Assembly (NCBI GenBank): GCA_002319915.1
Contig: DCFQ01000021.1
Location: 47,643-111,642 of the forward strand
Origin: Bacteroidales bacterium UBA1800
GTDB lineage: Bacteria > Bacteroidota > Bacteroidia > Bacteroidales > VadinHA17
Length of the DNA stretch: 64,000 nt
Direction: 5' to 3'
The notes under the pieces are model-generated. The model did not search any database. It had not been told where the DNA came from and worked only from the letters and a program-made list of their open reading frames with translations. Numbering within the stretch: the first letter of the stretch is position 1; each line of letters starts with the position of its first letter. The position numbers and the translations under genes were made by a program. Below are positions 26,130-61,101 of this stretch, in pieces.

Positions 26130-26434
26130 GATTCGGACTTATAAATGGTCGTCAGATAGAAGATATATTGATGAAAAAAACGAGTCATAATCTTATTCAA
26201 TTTTGGGCAGGCAGTAGTCAGGCCACGATTCCTTTCTTAAGATAGAATTCAAATATGCAGTCTCTTAAGGATGTTTACTATGGTTGCCGGTTAAATTATA
26301 ACTCCCATTTTCAGCAATTAGTATCATTTGACAGGTGTTTTCCACCAATGTTATACTTACCTCTGCGACGTCATTAACCTCTCATATTCCCAGAGAAGGT
26401 GGATAATCAGTACAGTATTGGAGGAAAGAAATTT

Positions 26435-26522
26435 TTAACCGCAAAGGACACCAGGATGGCTCAAAGTACGCCAGGGCTGAATGCTGTTTTTACATCCTTG
26501 CGGGCTTTGCGTAATTCCGGTT
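26435..26522. repeat. intergenic imperfect-palindrome element (TTAACCGCAAAG type)
   Basis: ttaaccgcaaaggacacc ... ccttgcgggctttgcgtaattccggtt. The arms are of the same family as 27754 and 30488. Confidence 0.6.
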
Positions 26523-27732: not shown

Positions 27733-27753
27733 ACTGAGTTTTTTTTAAATCCA

Positions 27754-27869
27754 TTAACCGCAAAGGACGCAAAGTCCCTTAATCCCTTGTAGCAGACGCA
27801 AATCTCCATTTTGGGGATAGGAGCCAGACTTTGCGGTCTTTGCGCAAATTTTGGGGTCTTTGCGGTTAA
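27754..27869. repeat. intergenic hairpin element with TTAACCGCAAAG terminal inverted repeats
   Basis: Left end ttaaccgcaaaggacgcaaagtc; right end gactttgcggtctttgcg...tctttgcggttaa. It fills the gap between the lactonase start and the TIM-barrel gene stop. Confidence 0.75.
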
Positions 27870-27887
27870 AAAGAAATGTTTTTTAAC

Positions 27888-30213: not shown

Positions 30214-30487
30214 ATCAGGTAAAGATTAAAATGTGTTTTAAATGAATTGTAAATCAATGAAAGAGATTTAATCAAATGTAAATATAGAGATTTAAATATC
30301 CAACGATTCGGGAGCTTTTAAACAATTTTAACGATCGTTATTTCACCTAGAAAAGAAATTACCCCACACAGCTTGATCTGCTTTATGTACACATTTCATA
30401 GTTAGAGGGAAAAGCCATTTAAGTGAAAACACCTTTGAAAGGGTAGGATTTAATTAAGATTGGTCTGTGTCGTGGGAAAAGCATTAT

Positions 30488-30592
30488 TTAACCGCAAAGA
30501 GCGCAGTGAAGGTGCAAAGTGCGCAAAGGCAAATTGCTTAATATCTATTCTTTGCGAACTCTGCGAAGTAACTTTGCGAACTTAGCGGTTAA
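30488..30592. repeat. intergenic hairpin element with TTAACCGC terminal inverted repeats and 10-11-nt phased GCAAAG modules
   Basis: ttaaccgcaaagagcgcagtgaaggtgcaaagtgcgcaaagg / ctttgcgaactctgcgaagtaactttgcgaacttagcggttaa, with a loop of about 20 nt. Confidence 0.75.
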
Positions 30593-30760
30593 TTGATTTC
30601 AACTTTGTCCGCACACCCAAAATTTTCCACGCTAAAACCTGCTCCTCAGAGGCAATATTGGGCCTCTGTGTACTCTATGTAACAAATAATCCCTTTTACT
30701 AAAAGTCATTCAGGCATCCCTTTATAAAAAAAGTTACATTTGCCTTAAATCAATCCATTA

Positions 30761-34026: not shown

Positions 34027-34174
34027 TACGCCCCCAAACCCCCTAAAGGGGGCTTTCTCTAATTGCTTAAACTTACTTTTACGCTACTATTGTTAGCTGC
34101 TTAACCGCCCTTCATGGGGCATCATTGTGCACGGTTCAAGCCCCACTTCAGGGGGGATGGGGGGCCATTCTGAG

Positions 34175-34207
34175 ACACAGAGGAGTCACGGAGGAGGCAC
34201 GGAGGGC
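34175..34207. repeat. solo arm of CACAGAGG/CACGGAGG 11-nt phased modules
   Basis: acacagaggagtcacggaggaggcacggaggg. Confidence 0.6.
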
Positions 34208-41395: not shown

Positions 41396-41467
41396 AGATT
41401 ATAAAAATGCTGGCGTCAAGATAGAAAATTATCCCAAATCACAAAAACTATCGGAAGGATTAAATTG

Positions 41468-41541
41468 CTGCTGGTTGCCTGTTCCTTGTTGCTTGTTGTT
41501 CTGCCTTAACCTGCAACCAGTAACCAGTAACCAGCAACCAA
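41468..41541. repeat. heptad-periodic hairpin element (GGTTGC... / CAACCAG TAACCAG TAACCAG CAACCA)
   Basis: Left arm ctgctggttgcctgttccttgttgcttgttg; right arm ctgcaaccagtaaccagtaaccagcaaccaa. Confidence 0.65.
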
Positions 41542-41560
41542 TTATCCAGCAACTAACTCT

Positions 41561-45876: not shown

Positions 45877-45894
45877 TCCCGATAGCTATCTGGA
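45877..45894. repeat. degenerate copy of the 18-bp palindrome TCCCGATAGCTATCGGGA
   Basis: tcccgatagctatctgga (1 mismatch), followed by cgcggaggatcacaggg modules. Confidence 0.6.
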
Positions 45895-46905: not shown

Positions 46906-48270
46906 ATGAGAGTACATTTTATTGCGATCGGCGGTGCGGTGATGCATAACCTGGCCATTGCACTGCAGGAAAAAGGTTATAATGTCACAGGTTCTGACGA
47001 TGAGATCTTCGAGCCGTCGCGCTCGCGTCTTGCATCTCACGGCTTGCTACCTCCGGAACCCGGATGGCATCCCGGAAGAGTGACCCCCGACATTGACACT
47101 GTGATCCTGGGGATGCATGCCAGGCAGGATAATCCTGAACTCGGAAGAGCCCTCGAACTCGGCTTAAGGATTATGTCGTTCCCCGAATTCATATATGATC
47201 AGACCAGGAACAAGAAGCGGATCGTGGTGGCCGGAAGCCACGGCAAAACAACAACCACGGCAATGATAATGCATGTGCTCAGGAACCTTGGGATCAGGTT
47301 CGATTACATGGTTGGTTCGCAGATCGACGGATTCGATAATATGGTCGGACTGTCAGATGATTCCGAAATAGCTGTTCTCGAGGGGGATGAGTATCTCACC
47401 TCTGCCCTCGACAGGAGGCCCAAGTTCCACCTTTACATGCCCGACATTGCAATCCTTAACGGGATCGCCTGGGACCATATGAATGTTTTCCCCACATTCA
47501 GCAACTATATCGAACAGTTCAGGATATTCATTTCAAAGATCACCCCGGGGGGCAGCCTGATCTATTATGCTGATGACCCTGAAGTGAATAAGCTTGCCCT
47601 GGAGGCGGAAGGTGATATAAGGAAGATCCCGTACCGGGTTCATGGCTATTTCCAGAACAAGACCGGCTTCTATGCCGCCACCCTCGACAGGACCGTCAGG
47701 GTAAAAGTTTTCGGGGAGCACAATATGCAGAACTTGTCGGCCGCGAAGGAAGCGTGCCTGGCAGTTGGGGTCACGGTGGATGATTTCTATTCATCGGCCG
47801 GCAGCTTTGAAGGAACCGCCAGGCGGCTGCAGCTGATCGCAGAGAACAGCTCCGGTGCCGCCTATCTCGATTTTGCCCATTCTCCTTCAAAGGTAAAGGC
47901 GACTGTCGATGCCACAGCATCGAGGTATCCCGGAAGGAAAATAGTTGCCTGCCTTGAGTTGCATACCTATTCAAGCCTTAACCGCAGCTTCCTCTCAAAT
48001 TACCGGGGAACACTCGACAGCGCTTCAATATCATATATTTATTTCAATCCCAGGCAATTTGAACTAAAGAAGCTTGAGCCATTCACGAAAGAGAGTGTCT
48101 CCGAAGCTTTCGGAGGGAAGAACCTGAAAGTATTTGATGATTCGGCGGAAATGTTCTCCGACATGAAAAGCAGGAGGATCCAGGCGCCAGTGTTCCTTTT
48201 CATGAGCTCCGGCGATTATGACGGCACCGACATTAAAGCACTGGCATCGGAATTGCTTTGTAACAAATAG
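46906..48270 (+). CDS. mpl: Mur-ligase family protein, Mpl-like (UDP-MurNAc:tripeptide ligase)
   Basis: 454 aa. The N-terminus is HFIAIGGAVMHNLAIAL..GYNVTGSDD and the P-loop is GSHGKTTTTAM. The Mpl versus MurC assignment is from N-terminal resemblance only. Confidence 0.65.
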   Translation: MRVHFIAIGGAVMHNLAIALQEKGYNVTGSDDEIFEPSRSRLASHGLLPPEPGWHPGRVTPDIDTVILGMHARQDNPELGRALELGLRIMSFPEFIYDQTRNKKRIVVAGSHGKTTTTAMIMHVLRNLGIRFDYMVGSQIDGFDNMVGLSDDSEIAVLEGDEYLTSALDRRPKFHLYMPDIAILNGIAWDHMNVFPTFSNYIEQFRIFISKITPGGSLIYYADDPEVNKLALEAEGDIRKIPYRVHGYFQNKTGFYAATLDRTVRVKVFGEHNMQNLSAAKEACLAVGVTVDDFYSSAGSFEGTARRLQLIAENSSGAAYLDFAHSPSKVKATVDATASRYPGRKIVACLELHTYSSLNRSFLSNYRGTLDSASISYIYFNPRQFELKKLEPFTKESVSEAFGGKNLKVFDDSAEMFSDMKSRRIQAPVFLFMSSGDYDGTDIKALASELLCNK

Positions 48271-49311: not shown

Positions 49312-49378
49312 GTATCATGCCCCCTGATCCCTGGTTTACTAACCAAGAGCGTAATTTCTGACTTTGTACATCGAACCA

Positions 49379-49545
49379 GCCTTTGTGCAACTTTGAGCTG
49401 CACTTTGTGTACCTTTGTGTTTCAAACAATTACCTGCAACCACAAAGGTTCACTAAGGTCCCGATAGCTATCGGGATCACAAAGGTAACCAAAGCAACTG
49501 CATTACGGAATTGCAATTCTGTGCCTCCTCCGTGCTCTCTGTGTA
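49379..49545. repeat. composite intergenic element: CTTTGTG/CACAAAG hairpin + 18-bp perfect palindrome + CTCCGTG/CTCTGTG arm
   Basis: ctttgtgcaactttgagctgcactttgtgtacctttgtg ... cacaaaggttcactaagg; TCCCGATAGCTATCGGGA at 49459-49476; gtgcctcctccgtgctctctgtgt at the 3' end. Confidence 0.75.
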
Positions 49546-49588
49546 ACTTTTTATTCTTAACTTTATCCTGATTCATCTCTCTCGCTGC

Positions 49589-50272
49589 ATGTCACTTAAA
49601 ATCACAGACTGGGCTGTTGAGGACAGACCCAGGGAAAAACTGATCGCCAAAGGTATGTCGAGCCTCAGCGATGCCGAATTACTGGCAATCCTCATCAGCT
49701 CGGGCACAAGGAACAAATCGGCTGTCGATCTTGGAAGGGAGCTTCTGGGGCTGGCAGGGAACAACCTTAATTCGCTTGGAAAGCTCTCGGTCGCCGAACT
49801 GAGAAAGATCCGCGGAATCGGCCCGGCGCGGGCTGTCATAATCTCAGCCGCTCTTGAGCTCGGCCGACGCAGGAAACTCGCTGAACTTCCCGAGGTAAGC
49901 CAGATCAAATGTTCAAGGGATGTGGCTGATATTTTCCAGCCGGTGCTCTCCGATCTTGCCCATGAGGAGTTCTGGGTCCTCTTCCTCAACAGGTCGAACA
50001 GGGTGACCGGAAAGATGAAGATCAGCCAGGGCGGAGTGAGCGGAACCGTTACGGATGTGAGGATCATAATGAAACAGGCTGTTGAGTTCCTGGCCTCCGG
50101 CATCATCGTCTGCCATAACCATCCTTCAGGCAACCTGAATCCGAGTGAGTCTGACTCGAAGATCACCCACAAGATCCGTGAGGCAGGGAATCTCCTGGAT
50201 ATTCAGCTCCTCGACCATATCATCATTTCCGGGATGGATTACTTCAGCTTCGCTGATAACGGGATGATCTGA
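49589..50272 (+). CDS. radC: RadC-family JAB-domain protein
   Basis: 227 aa with an N-terminal HhH region (RPREKL...LSDAELLAILI.SG) and the JAMM motif HNHPSG. Confidence 0.9.
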   Translation: MSLKITDWAVEDRPREKLIAKGMSSLSDAELLAILISSGTRNKSAVDLGRELLGLAGNNLNSLGKLSVAELRKIRGIGPARAVIISAALELGRRRKLAELPEVSQIKCSRDVADIFQPVLSDLAHEEFWVLFLNRSNRVTGKMKISQGGVSGTVTDVRIIMKQAVEFLASGIIVCHNHPSGNLNPSESDSKITHKIREAGNLLDIQLLDHIIISGMDYFSFADNGMI

Positions 50273-50282
50273 GTTGGAAAAG

Positions 50283-50372
50283 GGTCACACAGAGGCTCCG
50301 GAGGAGGCACAGAGTGGCACAGAGATTCAGTGCTCTCCGTGTCTTCTCCGTGTCCCGATAGCTATCGGGATC
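50283..50372. repeat. CACAGAG/CGGAGG hairpin element ending in the 18-bp perfect palindrome
   Basis: cacacagaggctccggaggaggcacagagtggcacagag / tgctctccgtgtcttctccgtg; TCCCGATAGCTATCGGGA at 50353-50370. It overlaps the last ~15 codons of folK. Confidence 0.75.
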
Positions 50373-52736: not shown

Positions 52737-53828
52737 ATGGCTAACGGAAGACTCTGGCCGCTTTACCCCTTCTCCATCGTCTACAGGCTGATTACCGACA
52801 TCAGGAATATTCTCTACGATACCGGTATCCTTCATTCAGTGAAATTTGAAATACCTGTGATCTGCATCGGGAATATCACTGTGGGCGGAACCGGCAAAAC
52901 ACCGCACACGGAGTACATCGCCGGCCTGCTGAAAGATGAATTCCACACCGCCGTTCTGAGCAGAGGATATGGGAGAAAGACCAGGGGGTATCTCGAGGTG
53001 GGCAGTGATAGTGCTGCAAACGCTTCCGGCGATGAGCCCCTACAGGTCGCCCTCAGTTTCCCGGATGTCCTTGTGGCGGTCGACGGCGACAGGGTCCACG
53101 GGGTGAATAATATCCGGAGCAGACATCCTGAGACCGGAGTTATTCTGCTTGACGATGCATTTCAGCACCGGAGGATAAGGGCAGGGTTGACAATCCTTCT
53201 CACCGATTATAACCGGCTGATGACAAGGGATTTCATTCTCCCTTTCGGGCGTTTGCGTGAAAAACGGGCAAATGCAGCCAGGGCTAATATAATAATCGTC
53301 ACAAAATGCCCCCCGGATATGGGAAGAGCAGAAATGGAAAAGCTGCAACACGAACTGAATACCTGTCCTCAACAGGAGCTTTTCTTCACAACCCTGACGT
53401 ATTCCTGTCCAAAACCGGTATATCCCGGTAATTCAAGGGAGCTGAGCCTGGCGGAGGATGCATCGGGGAAGCAGGGTGCAGTCCTTGTTACAGGAATCGC
53501 TTCCCCCGGACCATTAAAGCTCTATCTTCAGAAATATTTCGGGGAGATATCACATATCGGTTTCCCTGATCACCATTATTACAGCCCCGGGGACATTAAG
53601 AGAATATCTGTTGCCTTCAAAAACCTGAAATCTCCCGGGAAACTGATCCTTACAACTGCGAAGGATGCGGTCAGGTTAAGGGAATTTGCTAATATTGCCC
53701 CCGAAATAAAGGAAGCTTTTTTCTATGTGCCCGTAAGCGTGATCTTTCTGGGCGGCGGGAAACAGGAATTTGACAACATCATTTACACTTATGCTGGAAA
53801 AAGTAATAAAAACCACCCAGTTCCTTAA
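52737..53828 (+). CDS. lpxK: tetraacyldisaccharide 4'-kinase
   Basis: 363 aa with the P-loop GNITVGGTGKTP and SRGYGRK. Confidence 0.9.
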   Translation: MANGRLWPLYPFSIVYRLITDIRNILYDTGILHSVKFEIPVICIGNITVGGTGKTPHTEYIAGLLKDEFHTAVLSRGYGRKTRGYLEVGSDSAANASGDEPLQVALSFPDVLVAVDGDRVHGVNNIRSRHPETGVILLDDAFQHRRIRAGLTILLTDYNRLMTRDFILPFGRLREKRANAARANIIIVTKCPPDMGRAEMEKLQHELNTCPQQELFFTTLTYSCPKPVYPGNSRELSLAEDASGKQGAVLVTGIASPGPLKLYLQKYFGEISHIGFPDHHYYSPGDIKRISVAFKNLKSPGKLILTTAKDAVRLREFANIAPEIKEAFFYVPVSVIFLGGGKQEFDNIIYTYAGKSNKNHPVP

Positions 53829-54600
53829 ATCTAACGGGATAATCGATCCGGTTGCCGGGATTGTCCTGGGGACAGGCCTTGGCGGGCTTGCCGCAAAAAT
53901 TGAGAACCCTCTCATAATCGATTACAGGGATATTCCGAATTTTCCGGTTTCCACAGTCGAAGGGCATGAGGGCAGGCTCATCTACGGCGATTTCGGGGGA
54001 AGGAAGATAGTTGCCATGAAAGGGAGGTTCCATTACTATGAAGGATACTCCCCGGAACAGATAGCACTTCCTGTCAGGGTCCTGAAATACCTGGGAATCA
54101 AATCGTTGTTCCTTTCGAATGCAGCCGGGGGTGTGAATCCGTCTTTTGAGATTGGGGACATTATGATCATCACCGATCATATAAACCTTATGCCAAATCC
54201 CCTTGCCGGGTCAAATGATGAAAGGATCGGCCCTCGTTTCCCGGATATGAGTGCATCATACGATATAAACCTGATAAACAAGGCGATCGAAATTGCCGGG
54301 CAGAATGGGATAAGAGTCCGCAAGGGAGTTTACCTCGGTACCACGGGACCAACATTCGAGACGCCTGCAGAGTATAGGTACTTCAGGGTCATCGGTGCGG
54401 ATTCGGTCGGGATGTCGACGGTGCCGGAGGTGATCGTCGCACGCCACATGGGTCTTTCTTGCTTTGCCGTAAGCATCATAACTGACCTGGGAGTGGAGGG
54501 GAAGATCGAGTACACCACCCACAGGTCGGTCCAGGCCGAAGCTGCAAAGGCAGAGGCCCGGATGACGGTGATAATGACGGGGCTTATATCATCGTTGTGA
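53791..54600 (+). CDS. purine nucleoside phosphorylase (trimeric PNP family)
   Basis: GIVLGTGLGGL, STVEGHEGRL, GRFHYYEGY, GMSTVPEV. The start is set at MLEKVIK and overlaps the lpxK end. Confidence 0.85.
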   Translation: MLEKVIKTTQFLKSNGIIDPVAGIVLGTGLGGLAAKIENPLIIDYRDIPNFPVSTVEGHEGRLIYGDFGGRKIVAMKGRFHYYEGYSPEQIALPVRVLKYLGIKSLFLSNAAGGVNPSFEIGDIMIITDHINLMPNPLAGSNDERIGPRFPDMSASYDINLINKAIEIAGQNGIRVRKGVYLGTTGPTFETPAEYRYFRVIGADSVGMSTVPEVIVARHMGLSCFAVSIITDLGVEGKIEYTTHRSVQAEAAKAEARMTVIMTGLISSL

Positions 54601-54610
54601 CTCTTGTTTT

Positions 54611-55078
54611 TACTACAAAGGATCACAAAGTTCTCCACTAAGTCGCACTAAGGCTCATAGAACTACACGCTTAATTCCGGATTTCAAATGTTCAACGTTG
54701 AAATTAATTAAAAGCCCTAATCTGCATCCTGACAACTTCAAATAAGTTAGAATCTGGGCCAGGTGAATATCTGCTAACGCTTCTATTGATTTCACCTCAA
54801 CAATAATACTGTCTTCAACTAACAAATCCAGTCAATAGCCTGCTTCTAATCTGACAGATCTGCAAATTAACGGTAATGGAATTTGTTTGTTGACTTTAAC
54901 ACCTGAATGCTCTAATTCATAAAATAAACATTCAACATAAGCACTCTCCAATAGTCCTGGTCCCAGGGCAGAATGGATTCTAAATTAACAATCCAAAATA
55001 TTCTTAAACAGCTTTTCAATGTCCATATCAAAATTATTTTCTTTGTGCGACTTTGTGAGAACCTTAGTGACCCTTCAT
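54611..55078. mobile_element. hairpin-flanked cassette: ~37-nt imperfect inverted arms (CACAAAG/CACTAAG modules) enclosing a decayed GxxExxY ORF
   Basis: The left arm acaaaggatcacaaagttctccactaagtcgcactaagg is collinear with the reverse complement of the right arm (gaagggtcactaaggttctcacaaagtcgcacaaag). The interior is AT-rich. Mobility is inferred, not shown. Confidence 0.4.
54655..55074 (-). pseudogene. GxxExxY-family (PD-(D/E)XK nuclease-like) pseudogene
   Basis: The minus strand reads ...ENNFDMDIEKLFKNILDC*FRIHSALGPGLLESAYVECLFYELEHSGVKVNKQIPLPLICRSVRLEAGY*LDLLVEDSIIVEVKSIEALADIHLAQILTYLKLSGCRLGLLINFNVEHLKSGIKRVVL*. The in-frame stops are TAA (54985-54987) and TGA (54832-54834). Confidence 0.8.
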
Positions 55079-55108
55079 GGTAAATCTCAATTCCATGAAT
55101 TGAAGTTT

Positions 55109-57484
55109 CTAGTTCCTGATTACCGTACAAACCTTTTTCCAGTGGCGGGTTTTTCCCGTGTCGTCAAAAACCTTGATCAGCAGAACATATATCCCTGTTT
55201 CAACCAGCGACCCGTCATCAGCAGTACCATCCCATACAACCGACGCCTCGCTGCCAGCAAAAAGGTTATCTGTTAATTTTTTCACAATAGAACCGGTCTC
55301 ATCGAAGATCCACACCAACACCACATTCCCGTTCCCGATCAGTTTAATATCCAATACCAGAAAATCCTGGTTCCCGTCATTGTCAGGGGTTATGAAGGCA
55401 GAAGAGAAAACAACGGCATCATTCTCCACCGGTTTCTCGGAATAGACGGAATTCACGGCCCCGGGCGTTCCCCAACCGCATGACTCCGAAGCAGAGTGCC
55501 AGTACTCCCCGCATTCCGAGGAACTTTCCGGCCTGACCTTCTCCAGCGAAATTCCTTCATTATCCTTCAGCAGCGGGAACTGAAGCTTCTCCGAATAGAC
55601 AATCTCATCTATCACGTCAAGCTTCCTGCCGAGCAGGATCAGGTGGCCATTGTCATCCGGCATAGATGGCAAAGACGGGATCTGGAAGATCCAGTCGCCG
55701 TCTCCTGAAAAAAACCTGCTGATCACACTTTTCCTGTCGGTGGTGATCGCATACAGTGCCCCCGGGAGGATGCACCTGTGTTCTGCCGACAGTGCGACCG
55801 TCGCCGAGGTATCCCCGGTTTCCTGGTTTACAGATGCCAGGCGCAGGCCGGCTGCATCAATGATCTTGCCGGAACAGTTTGCCAGTTCAATGAAATCGGG
55901 TTCACCCGGCAGCGGGTTGAAGAGGAGCTCATTGAACCGGAGATCCCCCCTGGCCGGGGGAACCGGCATGCCGAAACCAAAACAGTCCCGGTCAGCCGGG
56001 TTGCCCGAAAAGTCCTTCACCCCTGTCCCAAGGCAAACCTGGTATATTTTGCCGGTATTGAAGGCGCCTGTCGTTGTGATCTCAAATTCCCTGAACAGCC
56101 TGTCCACGACTTGAATGCCATTGATGCTCGGGTTTCCGATATTCACCTCATCCTGCCTGGCGGGAAGGCCTGTCACTGTTTCGGATAATCTAAGGGTGAC
56201 CGTGACCGAATCTTCAGGAAAGACATTTTCAATTCCCCTGAACGAAAAGTCGGGGTTATACCCCCGGACCGAGCTGACCCTCCCTGGGGTTCCGCCTTCA
56301 GCTGTCTTTGAGGCTTTCCAGTTCTCCCCACCCGAGAATGGCAGCCCGTTATTGATGATCTCGAGCGACCATCCTCCCTCAGCTTTCAGATCATCATTGT
56401 ACCAGTCTGATGAATACTCGATGCCGTCGATAAGCTTCCCGTGACCATCAAGGAGGGCCAGGACCCTGCCTCCGTCGGTAAGCGCAGGGAATGACCCGAA
56501 ACCTGCAACCGCTCCCCAGCTTCTGAAAAGGGCCGTATCGGAAGCCTGGCACAGGATCATGTACTGACCGGCCCTGAGGGTGACTCCTGGAAACGGGTAC
56601 TCCTGCGACTGGGTTGCCAGGTGCCAGCTGCCCAGGGGGATGTCAGACTTTGAAGCATTGAATATCTCCAGGTACTCCTTCCCGGGAAGAGAGACGGCTG
56701 GCTGGGGCCTGGCCATTATCTCGGAAAAAACTACATCCCCCGGAAATACCTCAGAGGTTTCCGGAGGGTCAGGGCCGTCACCGAAAAACCCGGTGATCTC
56801 AAGATCATCGAACCACAGGAGCCTGTCGCGAGAGGAGGTGTACCTGTAGGAAACTATGAACCAGCCTGCGTTTGTAAGCGAAGGATCATGATCCGAGGAT
56901 ATGCCCAGGGGGTTGCCATTGCTGTCATATACGGTCAGTGTCCAGTCGCCAGCAGCCGTCCTCATGATCTTTATGTTTGCCGGTTCTTCCGTGCCGATAT
57001 CCGTCTGCCAGTTTATCCGGCTTTTGACAACGGTTATGAACCGGCCCTGCTCCACCCTCCAGATCCTGAGAGTGTCGTCACTGCCGTCCTGGTTGACACC
57101 CACAGCGAATCCTGAAGGTTTTTCAACATTCTGAATGCTTCCGGCACCGATATCGGACATAAGATAAACGGTCCAGTTATTCGTGGAGGAGGGATCGGTC
57201 CCATACCTGAGGCGGAAGCTCCAGGTCGTAGTCCCCTGGCCGGGGCGAAGGTTCATCAGCGATAATCCTGCAAGGTCGAACCCGGCTTCGGGATTATCAA
57301 AGGAGTGATGCATGGAAAATGCGCCGGAAACTGGGCTGACATTGTCGGCATTCCAGCGGTTTTCCGGACTCTGGGTCCAGGGTGACAGGTCACCCGTCTC
57401 AAAGTCATCCATGATCTGGCCATATCCTGCTCTTTGCATCCACCAAAACAGGATATTTAAAGCCAGCAAAATAACTTTATTCAT
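55109..57484 (-). CDS. secreted protein with two lamin-tail (LTD) domains and a T9SS type-B C-terminal sorting domain
   Basis: 791 aa with a signal peptide. LTD-like segments are VVFSEIMARPQP...EYLEIFN and LRFNELLFNPLPGEPDFIELAN. The C-terminus ITPDNDGNQDFLVLDI...VWDGTADDGSLVETGIYVLLIKV matches the gliding/T9SS type-B pattern. Confidence 0.7.
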   Translation of the reverse strand: MNKVILLALNILFWWMQRAGYGQIMDDFETGDLSPWTQSPENRWNADNVSPVSGAFSMHHSFDNPEAGFDLAGLSLMNLRPGQGTTTWSFRLRYGTDPSSTNNWTVYLMSDIGAGSIQNVEKPSGFAVGVNQDGSDDTLRIWRVEQGRFITVVKSRINWQTDIGTEEPANIKIMRTAAGDWTLTVYDSNGNPLGISSDHDPSLTNAGWFIVSYRYTSSRDRLLWFDDLEITGFFGDGPDPPETSEVFPGDVVFSEIMARPQPAVSLPGKEYLEIFNASKSDIPLGSWHLATQSQEYPFPGVTLRAGQYMILCQASDTALFRSWGAVAGFGSFPALTDGGRVLALLDGHGKLIDGIEYSSDWYNDDLKAEGGWSLEIINNGLPFSGGENWKASKTAEGGTPGRVSSVRGYNPDFSFRGIENVFPEDSVTVTLRLSETVTGLPARQDEVNIGNPSINGIQVVDRLFREFEITTTGAFNTGKIYQVCLGTGVKDFSGNPADRDCFGFGMPVPPARGDLRFNELLFNPLPGEPDFIELANCSGKIIDAAGLRLASVNQETGDTSATVALSAEHRCILPGALYAITTDRKSVISRFFSGDGDWIFQIPSLPSMPDDNGHLILLGRKLDVIDEIVYSEKLQFPLLKDNEGISLEKVRPESSSECGEYWHSASESCGWGTPGAVNSVYSEKPVENDAVVFSSAFITPDNDGNQDFLVLDIKLIGNGNVVLVWIFDETGSIVKKLTDNLFAGSEASVVWDGTADDGSLVETGIYVLLIKVFDDTGKTRHWKKVCTVIRN

Positions 57485-58565: not shown

Positions 58566-58570
58566 TAGTT

Positions 58571-58609
58571 CTCCGTGCCGCTCTGTGTCTGTCTCAGTGC
58601 TCTCCGTGT
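58571..58609. repeat. solo arm of CTCCGTG/CTCTGTG modules between convergent asd and hflX
   Basis: ctccgtgccgctctgtgtctgtctcagtgctctccgtgt. Confidence 0.6.
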
Positions 58610-58613
58610 ACCA

Positions 58614-59831
58614 TCAGGCAGGGGGTGTACTGGACGGCACATCAAACAAAAAATCATTAAATGGATACCTGGTTACGTGTATCCTCTTCACCTCCTCGTA
58701 GAGAAGCCTCCTGAACTCATCGAGGTTCTCCCTGGTGATTGCTGAGATGAAGATCGTCTTATGATGCTTGTCCGAGGCCATCCATGATCTCCTGAGGTCG
58801 TCGAGCGAATAGTTCTCCTTTTTCACGGGGGTCAGGTCATCCTCATCCTTTGCCGAATAAGTAAACGCGTCAATCTTGTTAAAGACAAGTATCATGGGTT
58901 TACCGGATGAACCAAGCTCCTTTAATGTCTCGTTGACAACACTGATCTGGTCTTCGAACCCGGCATGGGATATATCCACTACATGCAGTAGCAGATCCGA
59001 ATCCCTGACCTCGTCAAGGGTCGATTTGAACGATTCTACAAGATCATGGGGCAGCTTCCTGATAAAGCCCACTGTATCCGAAAGGAGGAATGGCAGGTTC
59101 CCTATGACCACTTTCCTTACAGTTGTATCGAGGGTGGCGAAGAGCTTGTTTTCGGCAAACACGTCCGATTTGCTCAGGAGGTTCATTATTGTCGACTTGC
59201 CGACGTTGGTATACCCGACAAGGGCCACCCTCACCATCTTCCCCCTGTTTTTGCGCTGGGTGGTCATCTGGATGTCGATCTTCTTCAGCTGGTCCTTGAG
59301 GAGGGAGATCCTGTCCCTGATAATTCTCCTGTCGGTCTCGATTTCCGTTTCGCCCGGGCCCCTCAACCCGATGCCTCCCCTCTGGCGCTCCAGGTGGGTC
59401 CACATCCTTGTAAGGCGAGGGAGCATGTACTGAAGCTGTGCAAGCTCGACCTGGGTTCTTGCATACGAGGTTCTTGCACGGGTGGCAAATATATCGAGTA
59501 TAAGGTTTGTCCGGTCGAGCACCCGGCAGCTAAGTGCATTCTCAATATTCCGAAGCTGGCTGGGGGAAAGCTCGTCATCGAAGATCGCCAGGTCGATCCC
59601 GTTTTCTGTCACGAAGCCGGCTATCTCTGAGATCTTCCCGGATCCCACAAAAGTCCGGGGATCCTGCATATCAAGTTTCTGGAGAAATGTTCTTACCGGC
59701 TCGGCGCCTGCGGTTTCAGCAAGGAATGCGAGTTCTGACAAGAAATCCCGCGCCTGGTCCTCTTCCTGCCCGGGGTAGACCAATCCAACCAGGATTGCCT
59801 TCTCTCCCCTTCTTTCAGTATTGATCATCAA
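58614..59831 (-). CDS. hflX: GTPase HflX
   Basis: 405 aa with an HflX N-domain, G1 GYTNVGKST, DTVGF and NKID. Confidence 0.9.
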   Translation of the reverse strand: MMINTERRGEKAILVGLVYPGQEEDQARDFLSELAFLAETAGAEPVRTFLQKLDMQDPRTFVGSGKISEIAGFVTENGIDLAIFDDELSPSQLRNIENALSCRVLDRTNLILDIFATRARTSYARTQVELAQLQYMLPRLTRMWTHLERQRGGIGLRGPGETEIETDRRIIRDRISLLKDQLKKIDIQMTTQRKNRGKMVRVALVGYTNVGKSTIMNLLSKSDVFAENKLFATLDTTVRKVVIGNLPFLLSDTVGFIRKLPHDLVESFKSTLDEVRDSDLLLHVVDISHAGFEDQISVVNETLKELGSSGKPMILVFNKIDAFTYSAKDEDDLTPVKKENYSLDDLRRSWMASDKHHKTIFISAITRENLDEFRRLLYEEVKRIHVTRYPFNDFLFDVPSSTPPA

Positions 59832-59840
59832 ATACTCTGT

Positions 59841-59927
59841 GTTACCGGTTGCCTGTTTCCGGTGATGGTGTGATCCGGTCCTGCAGTAAACTGATGATCA
59901 TCTGCCAACCGGCAACCGGCAACCCGG
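59841..59927. repeat. heptad-periodic hairpin element (CCGGTTG... / CAACCGG CAACCGG CAACCC)
   Basis: gttaccggttgcctgtttccggt ... gccaaccggcaaccggcaacccgg. Confidence 0.65.
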
Positions 59928-59928
59928 G

Positions 59929-61101
59929 TTAATTAATAAATCTCCTGTTGTTCTGGACCGCCCCGTTTATGGCCTGCTTGAGCGATTCAGAGCATCTCAG
60001 CACCATTTCCTCATCTGAGGGGAATGGGACTACCTGGGTCTTTGTCTTTTCAAGCTGGTAAGCATTCAGGGCACCTGCATCGCCAATTGCACGTGCTGAA
60101 ACATTCTCAAATGCCGATCTTGCTCCGATTGGATCCTTCTTGACAACCTTATTCGGATTCATCTGAATGACCTCCACGGTTCCGTCGATCTGGCAGGCCT
60201 TGGTCTGGACGGTCTCGACAAGTGCGCACTGCAGGGTCTTATATTTCTTTGTCTTGATATCGTTGCCAGCCGTATCTTTCCTTACATTCCCGTTCTTATC
60301 AAGCTCATAGCTGTAACCGTCTTCCACCTGCCGTTTGATGACCGAATCCCGTTGCATAGACTGGTCAGGGGAAACCCCTATTGTTCTCACGACAACATTT
60401 TCATAGTAGTCGAACTGCGTATTTCCACCGAGGTCCTCTGTATGGTACTCGACCCATTCGCTGTTGAGCCTGGGCAGATCGATGGAAAGCAGGTCCTGTT
60501 CAAACTCCTTCGGGAACTGGATCGCCGAAGTATTCTGCAGGGTTATCAGGACCCTGCTCATGCCGCGGAATTTTGATTCCTCAATCCTGCTGTCGATACC
60601 CTCATAGTCTCCCACATATTCCTTTGCCCTGGCGAACTCATAAAAAGCCTGCCTGTACGAATCCTTGGTTCCGACTTTCATAAGCTCATTGCCATGGCCA
60701 AAATAGAAGTCAGCCGATTTCTTTTTCGCGGCGACCATTTCAGGCATATAGTCCATATACGGGTATTCAATGCTCTGACCATTAAGGTTAATCGGGGTAA
60801 CTGTGCGAACCATGCTCTGCCTGTCACTTAATCTCTTATTTATCAAATATATCTCATCCCAGTTTGCCGGTTTGCCTTCGAGTTTAAGGAACCTCAGCCT
60901 TTCATTGTCCTGATCATTGAGCAGCTTAAAGGACCTGTCGAGGACGGCAGCTTGTTTTGAATCGCGCGAATCCTTCCGCAATTGCCTTACCGCCTTATCG
61001 AGTGCAGCCTCGTAGTTCCCTTTCTCGAGCTGCTTTTTTGATGAACCGCATCCTGCAAGGATCATTGCCAGGATGAATAATAAAGAAACAAGCTTTTTCA
61101 T
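59929..61101 (-). CDS. hypothetical lipoprotein
   Basis: 390 aa with lipobox ILAGCGSS. No family was recognised. Confidence 0.55.
   Translation of the reverse strand: MKKLVSLLFILAMILAGCGSSKKQLEKGNYEAALDKAVRQLRKDSRDSKQAAVLDRSFKLLNDQDNERLRFLKLEGKPANWDEIYLINKRLSDRQSMVRTVTPINLNGQSIEYPYMDYMPEMVAAKKKSADFYFGHGNELMKVGTKDSYRQAFYEFARAKEYVGDYEGIDSRIEESKFRGMSRVLITLQNTSAIQFPKEFEQDLLSIDLPRLNSEWVEYHTEDLGGNTQFDYYENVVVRTIGVSPDQSMQRDSVIKRQVEDGYSYELDKNGNVRKDTAGNDIKTKKYKTLQCALVETVQTKACQIDGTVEVIQMNPNKVVKKDPIGARSAFENVSARAIGDAGALNAYQLEKTKTQVVPFPSDEEMVLRCSESLKQAINGAVQNNRRFIN

Follow-up and report, generated by a model that had tools for sequence, protein, structure and literature searches.

A 508-nt gap between two genes of the Bacteroidales bacterium UBA1800 holds a decayed gene of the GxxExxY family of predicted nucleases, set directly between two inverted arrays ("arms") of phased 7-bp motifs. 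The gap lies in a 64,000-nt stretch of contig DCFQ01000021.1 (forward-strand positions 47,643 to 111,642), here called the window, to which all coordinates given without a locus number refer. Across genomes, arms of this type enclose a GxxExxY gene or nothing, they conserve their motifs rather than their pairing, and one motif position follows the C-terminal tail of the enclosed protein. We regard it as evenly balanced whether gene and arms constitute a nuclease-plus-repeat element similar to the REPIN-RAYT systems (doublets of repetitive extragenic palindromic [REP] sequences forming hairpins, and REP-associated tyrosine transposases), with the motifs at both ends read by the nuclease, gene-less elements as its non-autonomous relatives and the window copy as a dead relic. 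We infer that the nuclease binds the motifs, cuts there and produces mobility.

The nuclease pseudogene and its arms

The gap separates a gene for a purine nucleoside phosphorylase (PNP) from a convergent gene whose product carries LTD and CHU_C domains, the latter a type IX secretion signal (T9SS-protein gene; Table 1). A previous interpretation made from the letters alone (the sequence-only reading) had held that this gap is not empty, that its minus strand encodes a near-full-length, AT-rich GxxExxY protein interrupted by two nonsense codons, the TGA standing where intact members have Arg, and that reverse-complementary CACAAAG/CACTAAG arms bracket the open reading frame (ORF). Each of these points was borne out. 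From 55026 to 54655 the minus-strand frame reads MDIEKLFKNILDC, stop, FRIHSALGPGLLESAY...GY, stop, LDLLVEDSIIVEVKS...NFNVEHLKSGIKRVVL, stop, with two in-frame stops and no frameshift. A profile search set beforehand, in which the stops were masked as X, placed the translation far above the cut-offs of both family models: 130.7 bits against Pfam PF13366 (cut-off 22; positions 2-117 of 117) and 137.2 bits against TIGR04256 (cut-off 35; profile positions 2-116 of 116), the E-values being 3e-40 and 4e-38 (GxxExxY / PDDEXK_3). The frame retains the signature GPGLLESAY, the D in LDLLV, the E-x-K in VEVK, the Q-x-x-x-Y in AQILTY and the NFN; in an alignment of 32 diverse family members, the columns of all these motifs show no variation or a conservation of at least 90%. 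Its C-terminal tail is of the short type (GIKRVVL). The nearest intact protein (P0001; 83% identity) is encoded at the same genomic site. At about 35%, the GC content of the cassette is below that of its flanks (about 50-57%).

Seven orthologues have sense codons at the two stop positions (Table 1), and the Arg replaced by the TGA is nearly invariant across the family. In separate sequencing runs of the same strain (L171-L173), which are 99.94-99.99% identical to the window over 8-14 kb, 508 of the 508 gap bases match. Both stops are therefore real and fixed, being identical in three independent assemblies. An alternative genetic code that reads through them is ruled out by the adjacent PNP gene, which ends in TGA, and by the sense codons of the orthologues. 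The window copy is thus a pseudogene of the GxxExxY family, without an intact ORF. Its inactivation appears recent, since all family motifs are kept and the non-synonymous divergence (dN) between the pseudogene and its nearest orthologue does not exceed that among intact orthologues. A scan of the gap for promoter and terminator consensus sequences gave nothing above shuffled controls.

The two arms form the longest inverted repeat found in the window (54609-54652 / 55041-55084; 44 nt, 75% complementary). Each is made up of four 7-nt CAC-N-AAG modules spaced 10/12/10. The stop-side arm has the outer end TTTTTAC, starting 7 nt past the PNP stop, and its inner end lies against the stop codon of the cassette; the start-side arm has the outer end GGTAAA and finishes 14 nt ahead of the ATG. 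In the coding frame, the start-side arm translates as RVTKVLTKSHKE, which the sequence-only reading had likened to the leaders of intact family members. The likeness holds, in that longer homologues carry equivalent leaders (TTKDTKVNTKFHK, NHQGAQRSHKG, NHKGTQRDAQRNTKE and PPRHQDTKE, and also TKDTK, NHQDTK and HKGxQR types), but genuine leaders they probably are not. Because most homologues are exactly 123 amino acids long, starting at the Met equivalent to that of MDIEK, the leaders can be attributed to start codons mis-called across the arm, and we read them as annotation artefacts rather than real peptides. This would account for the spurious K/H/T- or R/A/E-rich "leaders" in the databases as translated arms.

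Gene and arms across genomes

Eighty GxxExxY loci, obtained from a scan of one genome per species, were compared; they come from Bacteroidota, Cyanobacteria, Chloroflexi, Planctomycetes, Acidobacteria, Ignavibacteria, Gemmatimonadota, Alpha- and Deltaproteobacteria, and others. At 50 of 79 loci, the 150 nt upstream and the 150 nt downstream of the gene share a significant inverted repeat. The arm profile matched 49/80 upstream and 46/78 downstream flanks (about 60%), as against a single one of 142 control segments taken 1.2 kb away. The consensus is C[A/G]C-N-[A/G]AG(G), with variants CACAAAGG, CGCAAAGG, CGCAGAGG, CACAGAGG and CACCAAGG, and the layout is constant: four modules with short, long and short spacers behind a T-rich-AAC/ACC end, at mean spacings of 9.73, 11.83 and 9.87 bp (average 10.48 bp). 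All orthologues at the site of the window cassette have arms (L001, L002, L168, L169, L091, L100, L102 and L112), as do intact copies at unrelated sites (L003, L004), so that a comparison of intact-copy flanks planned beforehand came out in favour of a linked unit.

Conversely, 1.02 Mb of collected sequence contained 31 adjacent arm pairs 150-2500 nt apart, 30 of which enclose a GxxExxY gene; the odd pair consists of two separate, unrelated window elements. A further 21 pairs have a loop of under 65 nt. Arms of the C[A/G]C-N-[A/G]AG type therefore enclose a GxxExxY gene or nothing. An ordinary pseudogene caught by chance between unrelated generic repeats might have been imagined in a window rich in several kinds of intergenic hairpin. 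The exclusivity of the enclosed gene, the arms at every site orthologue and their presence in some 60% of gene flanks against 1 of 142 controls refute such a coincidence, whose probability we put close to nil.

In any one cassette, the second base of the motif is either A or G throughout, and it was asked whether it covaries with the protein. A tail of the form R-x-[V/A]-N-[N/K]-L was found in 16 of 20 G-type and 0 of 41 A-type cassettes (raw counts, without phylogenetic correction); motif base 2 thus follows the tail, the sequence-only reading having called for a test of covariation between arms and ORF. Both types occur within Bacteroidota, Chloroflexi and Planctomycetes, and proteins of the same type exceed those of different types in overall identity by only 1.6 points. 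The codons for the tail are situated a short way 5' of the first downstream module, with no overlap between the two. The spacing class (9/11/9 or 10/12/10) showed no association with the tail type, and the translated leaders of database proteins formed a set with only 4 N-x-L-tail proteins, too few for a check of the covariation. The covariation may reflect direct read-out of the motif by the nuclease or co-inheritance of gene and arms as a unit across phyla, and it supports either.

By profile and fold, the 123-residue GxxExxY protein is a minimal RecB/Cas4-like PD-(D/E)XK nuclease. Its structure is predicted with high confidence (predicted local distance difference test score, 95.5), and the family shows little or no variation in the motifs E, D, ExK and QxxxY. 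The nearest solved folds, all of them weak matches, are Cas4 SSO0001 (4ic1, E 9e-3), AdnAB, lambda exonuclease and Hjc; at the sequence level, no solved structure was matched. Searches with defence-system and phage-family profiles returned only sub-threshold Cas4-core matches and one unknown PHROG. The PF13366 / TIGR04256 family is large, with 19,699 clusters at 50% identity reaching E <= 0.001, and its members presumably have many paralogues per genome. The searchable literature mentions GxxExxY without treating its function, and neither there nor in Rfam was a description of the gene-arm unit or of the arm sequences found; the unit is apparently undescribed.

Local amplification was seen at some loci. 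In L100 (1484-1683) the start-side arm is present in three tandem copies, and in L043 (2716-2955) the upstream arm and the first codons of the gene are repeated three times. Many 50%-identity representatives (P0121-P0125, P0129, P0133, P0134 and others), predicted proteins of 266-295 amino acids, contain two GxxExxY domains each and may be either genuine tandem fusions or pairs of neighbouring cassettes joined by reading across the junction.

Motif conservation and a model of the unit

Between orthologues at the site, dN is 0.08-0.2 and synonymous divergence (dS) is saturated, which indicates strong purifying selection on the protein; since dS is saturated in most pairs, dN/dS can be stated only as omega << 0.1. 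Saturation of the synonymous sites also implies that the conserved non-coding letters are under selection. In these old orthologues, 97% of the fixed motif positions match CAC.AAG. Complementarity between the arms is 94% at the fixed positions, 40% at the N position and 37% in the spacers. Mismatches between arms at 58 loci showed no G:U wobble bias, with 116 sense-compatible and 124 antisense-compatible transitions and 388 transversions. Since spacers and N positions lose complementarity and no G:U bias is seen, what selection preserves is the motif and not the helix. Motif conservation and the 10.5-bp period together suggest arrays of protein-binding sites on one face of duplex DNA and favour protein recognition of the duplex over an RNA stem.

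The main rival explanation is an RNA-level element comparable to the 23S rRNA intervening sequence (IVS), in which the arms would pair in the transcript and be no more than pairing partners, with RNase III excising the cassette or the stem insulating it from the read-through of its neighbours. The IVS of Coxiella burnetii is a precedent: it is described as selfish, carries an ORF and is excised by RNase III (PMC4990558). In the 493-nt cassette RNA, the structure of minimum free energy has the arms paired end to end (z -4.6), the cassette is co-oriented with its upstream neighbour at 62 of 74 loci and with its downstream neighbour at 60 of 73, which fits co-transcription, and same-site relatives carry a 23S_rRNA_IVP gene between inverted module arms (see below). 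Pairing alone, however, does not require that the same 7-mer be kept from Alphaproteobacteria to Cyanobacteria, nor does it account for arms whose letters persist while their complementarity decays at N positions and spacers, without an excess of G:U-compatible changes on either strand. A-form RNA has a period of about 11, and the observed 10.48 bp fits B-DNA better. Rfam, moreover, returned no family for the whole window at gathering thresholds, nor for the cassette and five arm-rich loci when the thresholds were permissive. We therefore consider an RNA-level element unlikely.

In the interpretation as a nuclease-plus-repeat element, the unit would have two parts, the 123-amino acid GxxExxY nuclease and a pair of cis-acting inverted ends that adjoin the gene directly, each end comprising four 7-bp recognition motifs about one B-DNA turn apart (10/12/10 bp). 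The enclosed nuclease itself would read the arm motifs on duplex DNA, several protomers lining up next to one another along a single face of each arm, and the two arms would come together. A cut made at the ends or close to them would allow the unit, or gene-less derivatives of it, to be copied or exchanged. Gene-less arm-loop-arm elements would be non-autonomous relatives in need of an intact nuclease of the matching subtype in trans. In the window unit, the nuclease would have been lost recently to the two nonsense mutations, leaving arms that are still canonical.

Site history, related systems and gene-less elements

The gap between the PNP and T9SS-protein genes is a hotspot. Among relatives with 68-79% PNP identity it is empty (8-44 nt) or filled by a GxxExxY cassette, a 23S_rRNA_IVP, DUF559 or ORF6N gene, solo arms or other hairpins, and these states are interleaved on the PNP tree. 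The window, L168, L169 and L002 form one clade in which the gene was kept at this site. In two close relatives, L090 and L091, whose flanks are 94-96% identical, a 65-nt hairpin stands opposite a 530-nt cassette. GxxExxY units are also found at unrelated sites in different genomes, the GC content of the gene is below that of the flanks at 78 of 80 loci, and empty elements form tandem arrays in L039 and L086; like the turnover at the gap, these observations speak for mobility.

A number of observations weigh against a mobile nuclease-plus-repeat element. The difference between L090 and L091 takes in the last four PNP codons and for that reason looks like allelic replacement by homologous recombination. 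No target-site duplication was detected at the young cassettes L023, L038, L084 and L085 or at the L090/L091 junctions, and no clean junction between an empty and a filled site was found among the relatives examined. The window gene-less elements share motifs but not loops, and so give no sign of a recent burst. A function beyond self-propagation is suggested by a gene that stayed at one site under strong purifying selection. The family does not appear to travel on phages or plasmids, to judge from 0 and 8 GxxExxY records, respectively. The protein lacks a distinct DNA-binding domain, and the folds nearest to it are those of end-processing nucleases rather than of site-specific recombinases; about a fifth of the sampled GxxExxY genes have no recognisable arm. 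To these must be added the end-to-end fold of the cassette RNA and the want of phylogenetic correction in the tail counts.

The sequence-only reading had suggested that the hairpins are remnants, or non-autonomous relatives, of a selfish hairpin-plus-nuclease element. The link of gene and arms extends family-wide, but self-mobility of the unit is only what we infer from the above, and the copy of the window clade is vertically inherited: the site comparisons support viewing the gene of this clade as an old resident, which brings it nearer to a RAYT than to a selfish gene that cycles rapidly. The same inheritance at one site under strong purifying selection, the near absence from plasmids and phages and the weak similarity to Cas4 would also fit a stationary gene beneficial to the host, with a role in repair or defence, whose arms are operator-like regulatory or structural sites for a host factor, the gene-less hairpins being separate intergenic repeats that serve the same host system, without any mobility. 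Such a gene would not be expected at unrelated sites in different genomes, always with arms, nor with a GC content so consistently below that of its surroundings; related genomes differ in its presence and in the occupant of the site, the arm subtype follows the protein subtype and not the host phylum, and no defence-system model was matched significantly. We judge this alternative improbable.

Homing into vacant hairpins has, in our estimate, a similarly low probability. Here the gene-less elements would be targets, which the nuclease cuts and which are repaired from a filled copy by way of the arms, and the window copy would represent the stage of degeneration. PD-(D/E)XK homing endonucleases such as I-Ssp6803I exist, filled and empty elements have their arms in common, and filled, empty, decayed (the window, and L111 for the IVP type) and replaced states are all found at one locus across relatives. 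A homing cycle, however, does not predict long-term purifying selection at one site in the window clade, arms of some 40 nt with interrupted identity offer poor homology for recombinational repair, and the empty elements of the window are mostly of the CGC subtype whereas the cassette is CAC.

The closest functional analogue of the proposed nuclease-plus-repeat element is REPIN-RAYT (PMC3116915, PMC3337134, PMC5581495). In both, a small nuclease-type gene lies between inverted copies of a repeat that is also scattered gene-less in intergenic regions, purifying selection acts on a gene inherited vertically at a fixed site, repeats occur in end-to-end clusters, and repeat subtype is matched to protein subtype. 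The two differ in that GxxExxY is a RecB/Cas4-like PD-(D/E)XK protein and RAYT an IS200/IS605-like HUH/Y1 transposase, and in that the GxxExxY arm consists of four phased 7-bp motifs whereas REP is a self-complementary palindrome. RAYTs are typically single-copy. The cassette is not itself a RAYT, as it matches only PDDEXK_3 and the GxxExxY family and has no HUH tyrosine transposase.

Anatomically, the closest analogue is the ORF-bearing 23S rRNA IVS (S23p / 23S_rRNA_IVP; Coxiella burnetii IVS, PMC4990558), likewise a short AT-rich ORF between inverted termini that can, or here might, pair into a stem, of which ORF-less and filled versions coexist. The GxxExxY element, in contrast, lies between protein-coding genes and not in rRNA, its cargo is a nuclease and not a four-helix bundle, and its arms conserve motif identity rather than pairing. 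An IVS proper was rejected as a candidate: the element stands between PNP_UDP_1 and LTD/CHU_C genes, the window has no rRNA, and there is no insertion in helix 25/45.

Multi-site transposon ends, such as those of Tn7 with its TnsB sites and of Mu with its MuA sites, and pairs of transposons with miniature inverted-repeat transposable elements (MITEs) share with the unit terminal inverted arrays of several, here putative, protein-binding sites, short gene-less derivatives with the same ends and a preference for intergenic 3' gene ends. Unlike them, the GxxExxY unit has no DDE, serine or tyrosine recombinase and no target-site duplication, and its gene-less copies in the window are not near-identical. 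A classical transposon/MITE pair was accordingly discarded; the terminal inverted repeats are shared between copies with and without the gene, and the cassette has neither a transposase domain nor a target-site duplication. Cas4/RecB nucleases provide the best, though weak, structural matches, weak Cas4-core profile matches and the motifs E, D, ExK and QxxxY; GxxExxY differs from Cas4 in being half the size and lacking the cysteines of the Fe-S cluster. No CRISPR context was seen in the gene calls of a handful of loci. As for an integron cassette with attC, only the AAC...GTT ends resemble R boxes (RYYYAAC / GTTRRRY); the ORF is enclosed by the inverted repeat instead of lying outside the hairpin, and each arm is an array of four modules. 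Tested against what defines each of these systems, the unit qualifies neither as a RAYT or an IVS nor as a classical transposon/MITE pair or an integron cassette.

It seems conceivable, if somewhat doubtful, that GxxExxY genes with C[A/G]C-N-[A/G]AG arrays form a previously undescribed, cross-phylum class of nuclease-plus-repeat elements, the PD-(D/E)XK counterpart of REPIN-RAYT, in which the protein tail discriminates motif base 2 and the nuclease maintains or disperses both itself and the hairpins. If so, a family of about 20,000 50%-identity clusters now annotated as unknown would be assigned a function, and phased-module hairpins of this type in Bacteroidota, Cyanobacteria and at least six other phyla would be maintained or dispersed by a nuclease. 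This would explain the origin of an intergenic hairpin class that recurs in the sampled Bacteroidota and Cyanobacteria loci, and the use of a single convergent-gene gap as docking site for GxxExxY, 23S_rRNA_IVP, DUF559 and ORF6N cassettes, each with its own arm type. Delivery as a unit with a phased array, together with the tracking of subtypes, would turn an unknown function into a concrete, cheap experiment.

The other occupants of the gap have flanking repeats of their own. A 23S_rRNA_IVP gene (PF05635) is present in L094 (1884-2434), L099 (1045-1484) and L111 (4304-4783; decayed), in all three between inverted arrays of CGGATT modules (TTCGGATT), and a further one in L063 (1150-1850) has the arms AACAAGGA x8 and TCCTTGTT x2. 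As the IVP genes lie between inverted module arms, they would make up a second cargo family of this design; their arm motifs (CGGATT, AACAAGG) differ from those of GxxExxY and from each other. In L120 (2507-3337) and L092 (1341-1929) the same gap is occupied by a gene for DUF559, a Vsr-like endonuclease, flanked by tandem CCCCTCCCTGGAGGGG mini-hairpins, or by a gene with an ORF6N domain.

Hairpins without an ORF elsewhere in the window had been ascribed by the sequence-only reading to the same nuclease cassette. An arm profile built exclusively from other genomes recovered both cassette arms as well as gene-less elements at 26430, 27750, 30483 and 49377 and, weakly, at 50279 (Table 1), which upholds the link for these. 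The three best gene-less elements are of the CGC subtype, and the 49377 junction, like the cassette, is CAC. On the interpretation proposed here, the CGC elements at 26430, 27750 and 30483 would call for an N-x-L-tail paralogue elsewhere in this genome, and the pseudogene may have orphaned the CAC junction unless a second short-tail copy is present. The element at 27750-27874 is flanked by two co-directional genes. At 49377-49484 the topology is the opposite of that of the cassette, the arms being joined end to end with one of them interrupted by the palindrome TCCCGATAGCTATCGGGA; this hairpin is therefore not an emptied cassette. Nor does the link extend to the hairpins at 41461-41544 and 59827-59937, which consist of other phased modules (GGTTGC/GCAACC and CCGGTTGCC/GGCAACCGG), gave no match to the GxxExxY arm profile and are not of that arm family; they may be the arm type of another cargo family.

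Table 1. Positions of the cassette, its neighbours and gene-less elements in the window
Feature	Position	Strand	Sequence features	Evidence or remarks
PNP_UDP_1 (purine nucleoside phosphorylase, PF01048) gene	53770-54600		stop TGA 54598-54600	
Arm adjoining the stop codon of the gene	54604-54655	+	TACAAAG 54614-54620, CACAAAG 54624-54630, CACTAAG 54636-54642, CACTAAG 54646-54652	arm-profile match E 5.9e-7; inverted-repeat partner of 55041-55084
GxxExxY / PDDEXK_3 pseudogene	54655-55026	minus	123 codons + stop	profile match, motifs
In-frame TGA	54832-54834	minus	codon 65	orthologues Arg (CGT/CGG/CGC/AGG)
In-frame TAA	54985-54987	minus	codon 14	orthologues Ser/Ala (TCT/TCC/GCA)
Arm upstream of the start codon	55037-55089	minus	+ strand letters: CTTTGTG 55041-55047, CTTTGTG 55051-55057, CTTAGTG 55063-55069, CTTCATG 55073-55079	arm-profile match E 6e-6
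LTD + CHU_C (type IX secretion signal) gene	55109-57484	minus		
Partly decayed element, CGC subtype	26430-26515		TTTTTAAC-CGCAAAG... then CCTTGCGGGCTTTGCG	profile E 1.9e-4
Gene-less element, CGC subtype	27750-27874		TTAAC-CGCAAAG x2, ~55-nt loop, CTTTGCG x3-GTTAAAA	profile E 3.2e-5, 1e-3
Gene-less element, CGC subtype	30483-30597		TTAAC-CGCAAAG x4, 20-nt loop, CTTTGCG x4-GTTAA	profile E 4.5e-7, 3.2e-4
End-to-end two-arm junction, CAC subtype	49377-49484		CTTTGTG x4, spacer, CACAAAG/CACTAAG x3	profile E 1.3e-7, 9.5e-3
Short gene-less element, tentative assignment	50279-50352		CACAGAG x3, CTCCGTG x2	weak profile match E 0.048

By eye only, the motif is also recognisable in solo arrays at 34172, 49518 and 58567. 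Two of them have four modules and stand at convergent gene 3' ends without a partner arm in the vicinity: 34172-34206 (CACAGAG/CACGGAG), followed by a GC-rich terminator-like hairpin, and 58567-58611 (CTCCGTG/CTCTGTG). A RadC-like gene (PF04002 + UPF0758_N; 49589-50272) has CTCCGTG/CTCTGTG modules on one side (49518-49550) and the CACAGAG/CTCCGTG mini-element (50279-50352) on the other; these repeats look like adjacent elements rather than a RadC cassette. The perfect palindrome TCCCGATAGCTATCGGGA, 18 nt long, occurs exactly at 49459-49476 and 50353-50370 and with one mismatch at 45877-45894, 0 copies being expected by chance. One copy lies within an arm, between two CACNAAG modules, and another lies against a CTCCGTG arm; TCCCGATAGCTATCGGGA has the look of a very small independent repeat, either targeting the arm elements or being carried along with them.

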